Below are positions 1 to 17,995 of a stretch of 64,000 nucleotides of DNA, piece by piece (position 1 is the stretch's first letter; the number at the start of each line of letters is the position of its first letter). Both the position numbers and the translations under genes were made by a program. The notes under the pieces were generated by a model. The model saw only the letters and a program-made list of their open reading frames with translations. It did no database searches and was not told the DNA's origin. The DNA comes from an uncultured Verrucomicrobiae bacterium (GTDB lineage: Bacteria > Verrucomicrobiota > Verrucomicrobiia > Chthoniobacterales > UBA10450), in contig CAVSMF010000005.1 in the NCBI GenBank assembly GCA_963728975.1, positions 1 to 64,000 on the forward strand. Direction: 5' to 3'.

Positions 1-78
1 TTTCCGTGACTTCAACTTCACATCCCGCTTCCACGCGCGCTCTCGCCAGTGGTGGCTCATATTTTGTTCTCGTTAGGT
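1..78 (+). other. attC site (partial, right half; R' GTTAGGT ~72-78)
   Basis: ...cgccagtggtggctcatattttgttctcGTTAGGT; the same right-arm module as the attC at 9902-10032. Confidence 0.55.
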
Positions 79-82
79 CTAT

Positions 83-394
83 GTGCGCCTTATGAAATCG
101 ATTCGATCTTGGTTAGTAGCCCGGTTCTATCCTGGGTTTCTAGAGGAGTTTTACGCAGCACGTGAGATTCAGCGTCGCGAACAGAGGAGTTACATTCGCA
201 GGTTCACCTTTATTGTCGGCTTTTTTGCGTTTTTCATCCCGATGCTAATCGTTTTGTTTTCAGCGGCGGTTCCGCTTGTTTACAAGATTCTGCTCTTTAT
301 TGCCGTTTGGGGAGTGGCTTGCGTTCGGGAAACCATCACCGAGCATTACTCCCTTCAGTTGCTGCGCCGGGATCGTGGCCAGCCGAAGACCTAA
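83..394 (+). CDS. cassette ORF, small membrane protein (2 predicted TM), unknown function
   Basis: The ORF fills the cassette. Its stop TAA (392-394) lies inside the attC R'' box aCCTAACc. Hydrophobic segments are present. Confidence 0.45.
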   Translation: MRLMKSIRSWLVARFYPGFLEEFYAAREIQRREQRSYIRRFTFIVGFFAFFIPMLIVLFSAAVPLVYKILLFIAVWGVACVRETITEHYSLQLLRRDRGQPKT

Positions 395-515
395 CCGGGC
401 GATGCAGCTAACACATTTCCCGTTCAGCGTTCACTTTTTAAAATGATTAGTGTATCCTTCATTGCAGTTCAGGCTTCGCCTCCGGAAGGCGTAGCTGATC
501 TTATTCTCGTTAGAT
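389..515 (+). other. attC site (R'' ACCTAAC 389-395; R' GTTAGAT 509-515)
   Basis: The inverse core and the core flank a palindrome: gatgcagctaacacatttcc ... ggaaggcgtagctgatc. Confidence 0.65.
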
Positions 516-516
516 C

Positions 517-852
517 GTGAGCGCACTTCGCAGGTTGGCAATCGTCTCTGTCGTCTCCTTTAGCGTATTGTTAACGCTGACGGTCATGCTATTCCTTGCC
601 ACTGAATGGGCGAATCGAAGTGCCCAATTTGCGTTCGGAGATAAGGCGCGTCGTTTGCAAATCGACGGAAAGTCGGAGGCCTATGTCTTAGAGCACTTCG
701 GGCCGCCTAGTCACACAAACCCGTCGACAGATGGTTCGGGCCACGTGCTCGTATACGTGCCGTGCAAGTGGTCTTTCTGGCCTAGCTACTCCAAGATTGC
801 CATAGATGATCGCACCAGCACTGTATCCTTTTGGATGATAAACTCCGACTGA
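517..852 (+). CDS. cassette ORF, N-terminally anchored hypothetical protein
   Basis: GTG start directly after R'. N-terminal TM helix. No recognisable domain. Confidence 0.4.
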   Translation: MSALRRLAIVSVVSFSVLLTLTVMLFLATEWANRSAQFAFGDKARRLQIDGKSEAYVLEHFGPPSHTNPSTDGSGHVLVYVPCKWSFWPSYSKIAIDDRTSTVSFWMINSD

Positions 853-855
853 GCA

Positions 856-978
856 ATCTAACCAGGCGATGGAGCCAACCGCTACCCGCTGCGCGTTTAC
901 ATTTTAGATGATTGAAACACTTACACTTCGATTGATGCTCGCCGCCGGTAGCGGTGGCTCATCTTCTTCTCGTTAGAC
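856..978 (+). other. attC site (R'' AATCTAAC; R' GTTAGAC 972-978)
   Basis: ctaaccaggcgatggagccaaccgctacc ... ggtagcggtggctcatcttcttctcgttagac; the arms are complementary (ccgctacc / ggtagcgg). Confidence 0.65.
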
Positions 979-1020
979 GCATGGACCTCGTTCCGAAGAA
1001 GAAAAGCAGCCCTGCGAGCA

Positions 1021-1524
1021 TTGGCGGTTCATGCGCGATCATCGCCCTTTTTCGCTCCGCTGGTTAACGCGGGTCTGTTTTTCCTCATCTCGCTGCCGCT
1101 GATCTTCGCTGCCTTCGTGCTTTCGATTGTCGCAATGGCGAAGGGGCGCGTCATCGGGGGAATTGCACTTCTGATGAGTCTGATGATCGTAGGTCCAGGG
1201 TCGTGCGAGTTCATGATCAACCGGGACAAGTGGCTGCATCACCCAGAGCAAATTGAGGCGGAGAGCAGGCAAAATCTGACGAGACTTAAACGCGAAAAAG
1301 AGATCGACCGCCAATCAAACGAAGGGGTTTCATGGGACGAACATTATCTAGCCACAGTGTTGCGGGAGATAAATTACTCGACCCCTGACGGCAAAGTGAC
1401 ATTAGCGCCAGGTTTGATGCTCGACGCTGGGGTTTCCAGTGACGGGGAAAAAATCTGTGTGATTTACCGTGGCGACAGATTCATTGTTAAGCCTAGTGAC
1501 GTAATCTTAAGAAAAAAGAAGTAG
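1021..1524 (+). CDS. cassette ORF, membrane protein, unknown function (start uncertain)
   Basis: ORF within the cassette. Hydrophobic N-terminal half. Alternative in-frame ATG near 1134. Confidence 0.4.
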   Translation: MAVHARSSPFFAPLVNAGLFFLISLPLIFAAFVLSIVAMAKGRVIGGIALLMSLMIVGPGSCEFMINRDKWLHHPEQIEAESRQNLTRLKREKEIDRQSNEGVSWDEHYLATVLREINYSTPDGKVTLAPGLMLDAGVSSDGEKICVIYRGDRFIVKPSDVILRKKK

Positions 1525-1563
1525 CGCTGACCGACACGGTCATCCGCGTTATTAGAGCGTGAG

Positions 1564-15828: not shown

Positions 15829-16475
15829 CACAACCACCGCGCCCCCAACATGTCATCCAGACGATGCAGACCAACTCCTACGGCTGGTTCGACACGCCGG
15901 AAGAAATTCGCAACTTTGCGGTCGTGCTAGCGTTTGCAGCCTTGCTCCTGGCCGCGCTTGTGTTCACTTCGTTTCGCGTTTGGCGTCATTTTCAGCCGTC
16001 CCCCGCGGGTTCGCGAAGTGTTATCCGCGGATATACGGAGCGTGGTTTTGAGGGTCTCTCTTGTTCGATCTTCGGTTTCATTATCGGTTACGGAGATTAC
16101 ATCTATCGCGGTGTTCGCTTCGCCGCACGCAATCCAAAACGCATCTACACGGCCGTCGATTACATCGGGTACCTGTTTTATTACATCTATGGAGGGCTCA
16201 TTTTCAGTTTCTCGATAGTAGCCGTGTTCTTCGTCTTGTACTTCAGCCTGCGCGACCGTGTGTTTCGTTATTGGATTGTGTCCTCACTTCTGGGCGGCAT
16301 TGTGGGGGCGGGTGCTGCCTACCTCTCGCTTAAGCTTTTCGTTTATCCCGGGATGATACCCAGCTACAGTAAGACATTCCTGCCGAGATCCATCACTTCC
16401 GGAGTAGCGACATTTGGGTTGGGGGCGCTGTTCGCGTGGCAAGCCCGGCATCTAACCACTTCGCGAGTGAACTGA
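15825..16475 (+). CDS. integral membrane protein, second gene of the CPBP cassette (overlaps the upstream gene by 4 bp)
   Basis: ATGA overlap with the CPBP gene. 5-6 hydrophobic helices. Reads through R'' to TGA 16473-16475. Confidence 0.45.
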
Positions 16476-16561
16476 TCTTAACGATTCGCCAATCCATTCA
16501 CTTACTCACCAGGCTACCCATCTATCTCGTGGCTGGCCAGTCCATTCCATTCTCGTCAGGC
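16450..16561 (+). other. short attC site with degenerate R' (GTCAGGC) (R'' ATCTAAC 16450-16456)
   Basis: atctaaccacttcgcgagtgaactgatc ... ttctcGTCAGGC. Confidence 0.4.
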
Positions 16562-16569
16562 TCCTCACC

Positions 16570-17160
16570 ATGTTTCACGACATACCGCAATCACTCCTGG
16601 CGCGGATGCGGACGCTCGAGGAGATAGATGCGCGAGACCGGGCGGACGGCACGCCCCACAGCAAGCGACTGCGCCAGGTTTCACCTGAGGTTGGTCGGTT
16701 CATTGCTGTTTTGGCGGCTACTGCTCCGAGCGGGCGTTACGTTGAAATTGGGACTAGTGCCGGCTATTCCGCAATGTGGTTATCATTGGCTTGTCGAGAG
16801 GTTGGCCGGAAAATGACAAGTTTTGAGCTTTTGGAGGAGAAAGTTCAGCTTGCCCGCGAGACAATCGATTCTTCTGGAATATCGGACGTGGTCGAGCTGG
16901 TACATGGCGATGCGCTAAAGCACTTGCCAAAATGTGAAAACGTCGCGTTTTGTTTTTTGGACGGCGAGAAGGAGATTTATGAACGTTGCTACGATCTGGT
17001 GGTGCCACGGATGGTGGCCGGCGGGATTTTGATCGCCGATAACGCGATCAGCCACCGGACTGCATTGCAGGCGATGATCGACCGAGCGATGCGAGATGAT
17101 CGGGTCGACGCTCTGGTCGTACCCATTGGAGCTGGGGAACTGGTTTGCAGGCGTAGATGA
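16570..17160 (+). CDS. class I SAM-dependent O-methyltransferase (family 3, caffeoyl-CoA OMT-like), cassette ORF
   Basis: [14 protein letters not shown]... and [32 protein letters not shown] are typical of O-MT family 3. Confidence 0.65.
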
Positions 17161-17167
17161 CATTCCG

Positions 17168-17325
17168 GCCTAACCAGGCAAAGCAGCCAATCCGCCTGCG
17201 GCGGACCGGTGCGCGCCCAGGGCTGGACTACATGACTACAGACCGCAGACTACGATTTATGCTCGCTTCCCGCAGCCGTAGCTCCGAAAGTATTCGCGGG
17301 TGAACTGATCCTGGTCTCGTTCGAT
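17168..17325 (+). other. attC site with degenerate R' (GTTCGAT) (R'' GCCTAAC 17168-17174)
   Basis: Shares the internal gactacatgactacagaccgcagactacgatttatgctcg module. Confidence 0.45.
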
Positions 17326-17344
17326 CCACACAACGTTAAAACCT

Positions 17345-17842
17345 ATGTCGTTCGAGCAAATATCTTATCTGGCGCAAATTGTTGCTTCGGTTGGCGTGGT
17401 TGTATCGTTGATCTTTGTCGGTCTACAGATCAGGCAGAATACCGGCGCGCTCCAACGGAACGAGCACAACTCCACCATGGCGCAATGGACGGTGATCCGG
17501 ATGGCGATCGCCAAACACCGCGACATTGCCGAATTGATGACCGCGGGGCTCCATGGAGAGCGTGCCATGGATGCGGCGGATCAGCTGAGGCTGGAGCAGA
17601 TGCTGCAGGAAAACGCCTGGGCGTCCTTCCACATTTGGGAGAGAACGCAGCGGGGTATTTTTCCGAAGGGGACTTTCGAAGCGACAGGTGGAGCACTCTT
17701 GGGCACCTTGCTCAGAACGCCGGGTGGCGATAGCTGGTGGCGCGAGGCCAAACATATTGGCTTCCCTCCTGGGTTCGTCTTGGACGTCGACGCGGTGCTG
17801 GCCAAGAACGGTGGAGCGTCCGCCGTAGTGAATCCGACGTGA
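17345..17842 (+). CDS. cassette ORF, hypothetical protein with N-terminal TM (165 aa)
   Basis: ORF within the last cassette. No recognised domain. Confidence 0.45.
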   Translation: MSFEQISYLAQIVASVGVVVSLIFVGLQIRQNTGALQRNEHNSTMAQWTVIRMAIAKHRDIAELMTAGLHGERAMDAADQLRLEQMLQENAWASFHIWERTQRGIFPKGTFEATGGALLGTLLRTPGGDSWWREAKHIGFPPGFVLDVDAVLAKNGGASAVVNPT

Positions 17843-17854
17843 GACCCGCTGAGG

Positions 17855-17995
17855 CCCTAACCGGGCGATGCGTCTCCGGAAGCGTCCGGGGAGTGCTAAC
17901 TTTGAAACTGTTCGCGACCAGGCACGGTAGCCGTTGTCCTCCACCCTGACATCTGACTTCTTGACATCTGACTTTTGACTTTTGATCTCTGATTA
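17855..17995 (+). other. terminal degenerate attC (R'' CCCTAAC ~17855; no R' core) followed by short direct repeats; probable distal end of the array
   Basis: ccctaaccgggcgatgcg..., then tgacatctgacttcttgacatctgacttttgacttttgatc; no GTTRRRY. Confidence 0.4.

Follow-up and report, generated by a model that had tools for sequence, protein, structure and literature searches.

A large array of attC-bounded gene cassettes in a soil bacterium of the order Chthoniobacterales, very probably the distal part of a sedentary chromosomal integron

The first 17,900 positions of contig CAVSMF010000005.1 (GenBank assembly GCA_963728975.1), examined here as part of a 64,000-nucleotide (nt) stretch that will be named hereafter the window, carry a long succession of small genes separated by attC-type recombination sites. 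The region very probably represents that part of a large cassette array, in a sedentary chromosomal integron, which lies away from the integrase. Its host, a soil member of the Verrucomicrobiota, order Chthoniobacterales, is probably close to Candidatus Udaeobacter, in agreement with the initial annotation, which had judged from the letters alone that the genome looked non-proteobacterial.

Array extent and site inventory

When read over positions 1-21,000, the array shows a regular alternation of an open reading frame (ORF) on the + strand, an element of 90-233 nt, and the next ORF. In total, the array (positions 1-17,900) contains 24 attC-type sites and two half-sites, all in a single orientation, with about 24 cassettes between them and every cassette ORF on the + strand (Table 1). 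The earlier description of about 25 attC sites of 94-226 bp separating co-oriented ORFs was therefore essentially right. The elements open with YCTAAC(C) and close with (T)TCTCGTTAGR, and the nonamer TCTCGTTAG at the R' end occurs in 22 exact copies between positions 68 and 14,994, all on the + strand, with no exact copy in the rest of the 64 kb. The two remaining R' ends are degenerate (TCTCGTCAG at 16551 and TCTCGTTCG at 17315). A YCTAAC inverse core lies 90-233 nt upstream of each R'. That is, R' reads GTTAG(R)(Y) in 22 sites and GTCAG or GTTCG in the two degenerate ends, while R'' reads RYCTAAC in most sites and is degenerate in two (starting at 2540 and 14761), so that the R''/R' organisation proposed initially, with inverse core RYYYAAC and core GTTRRRY, was recovered with few degenerate exceptions. 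The motif CGTTAGG was counted 20 times versus 4.7 expected, and the composite R''-L''...R' pattern was found 10 times versus 0.00 expected. Of the first site only the 3' part is inside the window, an insertion sequence (IS) interrupts the twelfth, and R''-L'' half-sites are located at about 14608 and about 17854, the latter being the distal end of the array.

A covariance model trained on 15 window sites was run over the whole 64 kb with filters off (E<=1) and returned 29 matches, all in 389-17,292, and none in 18-64 kb. It also recovered the sites at 9381-9506 and 7498-7619, which had not been used for training. A rule-based scan, demanding CTAAC, a 4-6-nt spacer and an L'' box complementary to L' with one extra base, detected 17 window sites, all on the + strand and all within the array. 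A search against Rfam over the whole window gave nothing at the gathering threshold, and no tRNA genes were found in the window sequence. The GC content is about 0.49-0.59 in the array versus 0.54-0.60 elsewhere. Across the array the attC sites are only about 60-70% identical, and they comprise subfamilies with 82-99% identity. In addition, the long sites (155-233 nt) share a module of about 100 nt in the variable terminal region (GACTACGATTTATGCTCGTTGATTCC...CCCAGCTCRCGGTRTTC), which is carried by attC 18, attC 21, attC 22 and part of attC 24.

Folding and structure conservation of the sites

Most of the sites fold as hairpins closed by pairing of bottom-strand 5'-CTAAC with a GTTAG at the far end, followed by an internal loop and then by a long stem broken by single unpaired bases. 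Alignment of the arms and RNAalifold analysis of 15 bottom strands yielded a consensus. In it, five R-box base pairs (CTAAC/GTTAG) are followed by a spacer that stays unpaired and is longer on the 5' arm (8 nt) than on the 3' arm (5 nt). The L stem then begins with 3 bp and continues, beyond an extrahelical C, with 6 bp, an extrahelical T and more pairs. These two extrahelical bases are carried by the R''-L'' arm, at alignment columns 120 (an invariant T) and 127, with six paired columns between them. For comparison, and not as a test, attC(aadA7) shares this arrangement on its R'' arm, which consists of T, 6 bp, G, 3 bp and a 5-nt spacer. In published attC sites the extrahelical bases are on the L'' arm, the first being usually G and the last a conserved T, the 6-bp stem between them is required for efficient recombination by IntI1, and a nucleotide skew between the strands favours folding of the bottom strand (Nivina et al. 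2016, PMC5027507). The window sites fit this description except for the identity of the first base, which is C in all 15 aligned window sites.

When 22 sites were folded with single-stranded DNA parameters, the bottom strand was more stable than the top strand in 21 of them, as judged by minimum free energy (MFE), and the covariance model scored the bottom strand of regular sites at 66-130 bits versus at most 25 bits for the top strand. Of the features that the initial annotation had listed for checking, the bottom-strand fold and the extrahelical T were recovered, and in place of the extrahelical G there is a C.

Within the window alone (15 aligned sites), covariation is seen in nine of the 22 pairs. 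Importantly, in 135 sites from 22 loci of other genomes the model structure is paired in 97.1% of the stem cells, and compensatory changes are seen in 13 of the 17 L-stem pairs (429 cells). Sliding the partners by 1-3 columns left 19-39% of the cells paired, and none of 500 shuffles reached the observed value. The 135-site alignment was fitted to the model, which favours structure, but the conclusion that the structure is conserved is safe because the contrast is large and many types of compensatory pairs are present.

The attC family and its integrases in related genomes

The composite pattern was also searched for in other genomes, in a scan that covered one genome per species (GTDB) and returned 8-kb blocks, and was found in at least 118 of these. 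The related loci are given L-numbers below, and what is said of them here and in the following sections holds among the matches listed. The block labels are nearly all Chthoniobacterales, Verrucomicrobiae, Verrucomicrobiota, Spartobacteria, Chthoniobacter or Candidatus Udaeobacter, and at the DNA level the window is most closely matched by two contigs of one Candidatus Udaeobacter metagenome-assembled genome (MAG). Six blocks (L008, L040, L049, L060, L083 and L084) were binned as Acidobacteria, Terriglobales, Pyrinomonadales or Limnocylindria, and all but L060 are short contigs; mis-binning of repeat-rich contigs is likely, and horizontal transfer is possible. In the related loci the rule-based scan picked up 394 sites. 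Of these, 380 (96%) have C on the bottom strand, hence G on the top strand, as their first extrahelical base, with the conserved T and the 6-bp spacing retained alongside, and the spacers measure 5/8 nt in 320.

Integrases were searched for by tblastn (E<=1e-3) with IntI1 as the query, and the hits were independently verified with NCBIfam. Full-length IntI homologues, 52-55% identical to the query, are present in six related loci (L021, L027, L050, L091, L101 and L113), and IntI fragments in five others (L092, L029, L023, L077 and L078). Three of the six full-length ORFs (L021, L027 and L050) were scored against the integron integrase model TIGR02249, reaching 465-489 bits (cutoff 265 bits) over model positions 1-313/315, a span that includes the IntI-specific region. 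L021, L027, L091, L101 and L113 have the regular divergent layout, with the integrase gene directly upstream of its first cassette and encoded on the opposite strand. In L050 (125-4304) intI is instead located upstream of cassettes whose attC sites belong to the same family, points in the same direction as they do, and has a C-terminal extension; this layout is like that of inverted-integrase integrons and unlike that of the other five loci. L118 and L021 are contiguous and together span 16 kb, over which at least 27 sites lead up to intI. Therefore, arrays the size of the one in the window exist in the lineage attached to an integrase.

Imperfect palindromes of 90-233 nt between genes could in principle also be elements of the REP/BIME type (repetitive extragenic palindromes and bacterial interspersed mosaic elements) or of the MITE type (miniature inverted-repeat transposable elements), punctuating small genes and unrelated to integrons, and the window does have REP-type arrays beside genes resembling REP-associated tyrosine transposases (RAYTs). 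We consider this explanation extremely improbable. Not one copy was found in the 46 kb outside the array, under the permissive settings given above; all the repeats have one orientation, co-linear with the ORFs; the geometry of the R and L boxes and the extrahelical spacing match attC; the family is physically linked to integron integrases in the six loci just described; and the REP families of the window are unrelated to it in sequence. A genome-wide REP family, which the initial annotation had named as a finding that would refute its reading, was likewise rejected, since within the 64 kb the attC repeats are confined to the array and the true REPs at 28.6 and 53.7-55.0 kb differ from them.

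Cassette differences between strains and replacement of attC sites

Two metagenome contigs from other samples (L001 and L002), retrieved from ENA by exact-protein look-up, overlap the array. L002 is collinear with window positions 1-8957 at 97.7% identity and extends 2.2 kb upstream of position 1, adding four attC sites and three ORFs. L001, and its extension to 19.7 kb (L121, which adds 5 kb of variant array), are collinear with window positions 8948-16662 at 98.4% identity and carry a different set of cassettes upstream of that. The L121 extension contains more cassettes and a second IS copy, and no intI. Three cassettes of the window (7618-8962) are missing from L001/L121, where the IS-bearing attC is joined directly to the cassette of an S26-like peptidase, and the L001 and window sequences switch at the R' core at this junction. 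The cassette of the TonB_C ORF sits 6 kb away in a different context in L001/L121, and cassettes 1.5 kb apart in L002 are adjacent in L121. This cassette polymorphism between strains suggests recent activity.

When all sites were compared, among 19 pairs sharing the upstream but not the downstream ORF, the attC core is shared in eight, five of these at 97% identity or more. Among 21 pairs sharing the downstream ORF only, it is shared in five, all at the 86-93% identity of the family background. This asymmetry is a prediction of the canonical unit made of an ORF and its downstream attC. A strict linkage of the two across strains was only partly upheld, by the eight of 19 informative pairs.

The divergence between the contigs is a mosaic: most segments differ by 0-1%, the IS by 7.6%, one attC by 21% and the cassettes at 2238-2957 by 4-10%. 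A patch of about 7% divergence in the CPBP protease gene (about 15,000-15,800; L001 13120-13920) has no attC sites at its borders, and the remainder of that collinear region differs by 0-1%. This indicates that an allele was replaced within the cassette by homologous recombination. Ordinary homologous recombination therefore acts here, and not every difference is claimed to be mediated by IntI.

Downstream of the TonB_C ORF, which is itself identical in the window, L002 and L001, the three have different attC sites (attC 14, 10529-10659 and 1216-1335, respectively; mutually 69-82% identical). At attC 14 the window and L002 are collinear, show 100% identity in both flanks and differ only in the L''-L' core of about 100 nt; the version in the window has 96.7% identity with the site at 4916-5038 in its own array. 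Homologous recombination or gene conversion most simply explains this replacement. That a dedicated process swaps attC independently of the ORF, rather than ordinary gene conversion, seems unlikely. If it did operate, an exchange at the R' box as well as at the R''/L'' boxes, or templating from a neighbouring attC, would be candidates, and the process would bear on cassette genesis, that is, on how ORFs acquire an attC, as well as on the homogeneity of attC families at the lineage level.

A sedentary integron or an array without its integrase

In the reading favoured here, each cassette has one ORF (in some cases two) that lacks a promoter, with an attC site behind it. Once single-stranded, the attC folds on its bottom strand into a hairpin composed of the R box, the spacer, the L stem and a variable terminal region. 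An IntI-type tyrosine recombinase would recognise the shape of this hairpin and cut the R' core (between G and TT, top strand), and cutting at R' would allow cassettes to be excised, captured and reordered. We infer that IntI would catalyse this on the bottom strand and that the array may be active at present. The integrase of the array and attI, if still existing, would be located upstream of position 1 on the opposite strand. The initial annotation had likewise expected them upstream of position 1, and the divergent layout in the relatives agrees with this prediction.

Sedentary integrons are those with more than 19 attC sites or those found in all genomes of a species (Cury et al. 2016, PMC4889954). 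The present array has 24 sites in the window and at least four more upstream in L002, from which it is judged to reach at least 2.2 kb further upstream, and it is flanked by chromosomal genes. Like the Vibrio cholerae superintegron with its VCR attC sites, it is a long chromosomal array of more than 19 attC sites with co-oriented cassettes of mostly unknown function. With sedentary integrons in general it shares a lineage-specific attC family with subfamilies, duplicated cassettes, and the R box, spacer, L box, extrahelical R''-L'' bases, T, 6-bp spacing and bottom-strand bias of the sites. Unlike the V. cholerae superintegron, it is hosted by a member of the Verrucomicrobiota and not of the Gammaproteobacteria, its attC identity is only about 60-70%, its family has C as the first extrahelical base in 96% of sites, and no toxin-antitoxin or known defence cassette was detected among the window ORFs tested.

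Four observations weigh against the array being a sedentary integron of the canonical kind. First, the three distal sites (attC 23, attC 24 and the terminal half-site) are degenerate, and part of the array may therefore be decaying. Second, the first extrahelical base is C and not the usual G of the best-studied attC sites; this is regarded as a variant and not as an exclusion because the literature says 'usually' G. Third, the linkage of the ORF to its downstream attC is kept in fewer than half of the informative pairs (see above), and homologous recombination therefore also shapes the array. Fourth, no IntI signal was obtained in the window, in L002 with its further 2.2 kb, or in the 19.7-kb L121.

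This last point raises the possibility that the array has no integrase of its own, having been separated from it by rearrangement or having lost intI. It would then be a cluster of attC sites lacking an integron-integrase (CALIN; two or more attC sites with no intI nearby, within 4 kb in IntegronFinder). The identity of the array is not in dispute here, and cassettes would move only by means of an IntI encoded elsewhere, or not at all. In keeping with the initial annotation, which saw no integrase in the window, tblastn found neither an integrase nor a fragment of one there, and the same holds for L001 and L002. Related genomes hold attC blocks at several distant positions (e.g. at 760, 1008 and 1176 kb of CAWCST010000001.1), five related loci contain IntI fragments and not full genes, and IS copies inside the array could mediate rearrangement. 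CALINs with up to 114 sites are documented, yet in 83% of them the count stays below six (Cury et al. 2016, PMC4889954), so that with 24 sites the window array, though like a CALIN in having no intI in the available sequence, is far larger than a typical one. On the other hand, intI would be expected only at the integrase-proximal end, which lies upstream of position 1 and outside the window, so that its absence is not established. Moreover, comparable arrays joined to intI exist in the lineage (L118 and L021), and the cassette polymorphism between strains suggests recent activity. On balance we lean towards the array still having its own integrase, while a CALIN is a less probable but substantial possibility.

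An IS1111-like element in an attC site

The IS that splits attC 12 is about 1.56 kb long and is inserted in the L'' box (GATGCAG^CGAAC in the window; shared target GATGNAG^CNAAC). Its transposase ORF (6596-7492, minus strand) matches PF02371 with 34.8 bits, above the cutoff, and scores 55.5 bits against the NCBIfam model for IS110 family RNA-guided transposases, below the 140-bit cutoff. A non-coding stretch (non-coding region, NCR) about 650 nt long (5951-6595) follows the transposase gene downstream. The element carries imperfect repeats (TTAAT..GGG) in subterminal position, 7 nt and 3 nt away from its two ends, the end extensions being AGCCGTC and AGC. Position and orientation of the insertion are identical in five contexts, namely the window, L001 (5421-6982), L002 (8141-9704), L024 (1-1580) and L121 (1860-3420), the last four involving at least three other attC sequences. 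Deletion of the IS in silico restores the L''/L' complementarity in the window, and the L002 copy is flanked by a chimeric attC. At the DNA level the element is 80% identical to a contig of a Candidatus Udaeobacter MAG.

The attC-targeting members of the IS1111 family combine a DEDD/IS110-type transposase, a long NCR downstream of its gene, and subterminal inverted repeats that leave terminal extensions of 7 nt and 3 nt, with insertion into attC at a specific site and in a specific orientation; their NCR encodes a seekRNA in which segments match both target strands (PMC11187229). As judged from its sequence, the element parallels the proteobacterial IS1111-attC group (ISKpn4, ISPst6, ISPa25), with which it shares the IS110/IS1111-type transposase, the long NCR downstream of the transposase gene, the 7/3-nt offset of the subterminal inverted repeats, and the fixed site and orientation in attC. 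It is unlike that group in its very divergent transposase, its verrucomicrobial host, its insertion in the L'' box, and a guide match to the target that is found in the window copy only. When the copies were compared, two hypervariable islands were seen in the NCR between conserved blocks. In the window, AGCGAAC and CATCGC of the NCR match both target strands at the insertion point, but for the copies in L001, L002 and L024 no match between islands and flanks was seen, and the second match does not keep a consistent position. An Rfam search over the IS gave nothing at E<=1. A role of the NCR islands as guides (seekRNA or bridge RNA) is plausible.

Cassette genes and chromosomal surroundings

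A Pfam scan at the curated cutoffs covered 26 array ORFs, and 19 of these had no match above cutoff, in line with the earlier description of mostly uncharacterised genes. The products named at that time (S26, TonB_C, alpha/beta hydrolase, GT1, CPBP, O-methyltransferase and DUF4339) were all reproduced with Pfam (Table 1). The S26 cassette is duplicated together with its attC (8971-9504 versus 3504-4037, 99-100% identity); the scan covered the first ORF copy, and for the second (8992-9504) the copies in related contigs have a faint precomputed Peptidase_S26 match. In the S26-like ORFs the TAA of R'' does not end the reading frame, which runs on across the entire attC and closes with a stop codon in R' or close to it. 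Two of the cassettes with named products hold two ORFs: the GYF_2 ORF is the second of cassette 5041-5932, and the CPBP ORF is the first of its cassette, followed by an ORF at 15825-16475. The hydrolase cassette is 94.5% DNA-identical to a Candidatus Udaeobacter MAG contig (L031). PADLOC found no defence-system match for ten unknown cassette proteins.

Table 1. Features of the cassette array, with positions in the window. CM, covariance model score.
Feature	Start	End	Strand	Evidence or remarks
attC 1, 3' part only	1	78	+	R' GTTAG 72-76; complete in L002 2137-2259
ORF, 103 amino acids, membrane-like	83	394	+	stop TAA inside R'' core; no Pfam match above cutoff
attC 2, subfamily A	389	515	+	CM 114 bits (bottom strand); rule-based scan
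attC 3	856	978	+	CM 119 bits; MFE fold with R box, spacer, L box, 2 extrahelical bases
attC 4, short (90 nt)	1564	1657	+	CM 69 bits
attC 5	2111	2239	+	CM 96 bits
attC 6, R'' degenerate (TTTAAGC)	2540	2665	+	CM 85 bits
attC 7	2957	3080	+	CM 122 bits
attC 8, subfamily A	3382	3505	+	CM 121 bits
S26/S24-like peptidase, copy 1	3525	4022	+	PF10502 (Peptidase_S26) 40.5 bits
attC 9	3914	4039	+	CM 106 bits; 99% identical to attC 16
attC 10, subfamily A	4409	4533	+	CM 130 bits
attC 11, subfamily B	4914	5040	+	CM 101.5 bits
GYF_2 (DUF4339) ORF	5370	5867	+	PF14237 49.4 bits
attC 12, R''-L'' part, left of IS	5933	5950	+	sequence and junction analysis
IS1111-like element, about 1.56 kb	5951	7514	-	in L'' box of attC 12; ends +/-3 nt
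attC 12, L''-variable terminal region-L'-R' part, right of IS	7515	7619	+	CM 66 bits (7498-7619)
attC 13, subfamily A	7845	7968	+	CM 122 bits
TonB_C ORF	7905	8342	+	PF03544 56.6 bits; likely start ATG at about 7971
attC 14, subfamily B	8337	8463	+	CM 103 bits; replaced relative to L002
attC 15, subfamily A	8849	8972	+	CM 120 bits
S26-like peptidase, copy 2	8992	9504	+	duplicate of copy 1 (99.6-100% identical, attC included)
attC 16	9381	9506	+	CM 109 bits, outside training set
attC 17	9902	10032	+	CM 85 bits
attC 18, long (200 nt)	10466	10669	+	rule-based scan, alignment; shared module of about 100 nt
Alpha/beta hydrolase ORF	10677	11708	+	PF12146 81 bits
attC 19, long (202 nt)	11651	11856	+	rule-based scan
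GT1-family glycosyltransferase ORF	11879	13132	+	PF06722 65 bits
attC 20	13127	13245	+	CM 85 bits
attC 21, long (223 nt)	13879	14104	+	sequence, fold, alignment
Half-site remnant R''-L'', no matching R'	14608	14650	+	weak CM match 14611-14713
attC 22, long (233 nt), R'' degenerate	14761	14996	+	sequence, fold, alignment
CPBP/Rce1-like protease ORF	15001	15828	+	PF02517 46 bits
attC 23, degenerate (R' GTCAG)	16450	16561	+	sequence, fold (weak)
O-methyltransferase ORF	16570	17160	+	PF01596 64 bits
attC 24, degenerate (R' GTTCG)	17168	17325	+	CM 18 bits
Last cassette ORF, 165 amino acids	17345	17842	+	no family
Terminal R''-L'' half-site	17854	17900	+	followed by short tandem repeats 17947-17985, then chromosomal genes

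Beyond about 17.9 kb, the window encodes an SPFH protein, RecQ, an amino-acid permease, ABC transporter components, lpd/sucB/sucA and a Ser/Thr kinase, RecQ and the 2-oxoglutarate dehydrogenase complex being housekeeping functions. No conserved linkage of genes of this distal flank (SPFH, RecQ, cupin, VWA and amino-acid permease) was seen in the related 8-kb blocks. Two REPtron-like loci are found further downstream. In the first (28119-29154), a 72-nt unit is repeated 7.6 times (98% identical; 28612-29154) directly beside an IS200/RAYT-like Y1 transposase ORF on the minus strand (28119-28610). In the second, a 49-nt hairpin unit occurs in 9 copies (53724-54165) and in 5.2 copies (54721-54978), the two arrays flanking a Y1_Tnp/RAYT-like ORF (54116-54679) with the HuH motif DHVHLF. 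The 72-nt and 49-nt repeats differ from each other, and both are unrelated in sequence to the attC family.

Significance

Integrons have already been reported in Verrucomicrobiota (Cury et al. 2016, PMC4889954; Ghaly et al. 2021, PMC8618304). No paper linking Udaeobacter to integrons was found in the literature searched. Among chromosomal integrons, large sedentary arrays with lineage-specific attC families are the norm. Because of this, and because integrons were known in the phylum, the host lineage is a new detail and not a new concept, and the concept of the integron is unchanged.

The Chthoniobacterales, including Candidatus Udaeobacter, account for most of the soil MAGs matched. They carry large chromosomal integrons with an attC family of their own, and related loci show the cognate integrases. 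Together the arrays store hundreds of small, functionally uncharacterised genes, a reservoir whose content varies from one near-identical strain to another. The attC type could be used for assigning soil cassette-metagenome reads to their host, the sites lend themselves to testing how far IntI tolerates C instead of the usual G as the first extrahelical base, and the element in attC 12 offers a case for studying attC-specific IS of the RNA-guided type outside the Proteobacteria. The main value of the array lies in a well-defined, lineage-wide attC/IntI system in an important clade of soil bacteria.

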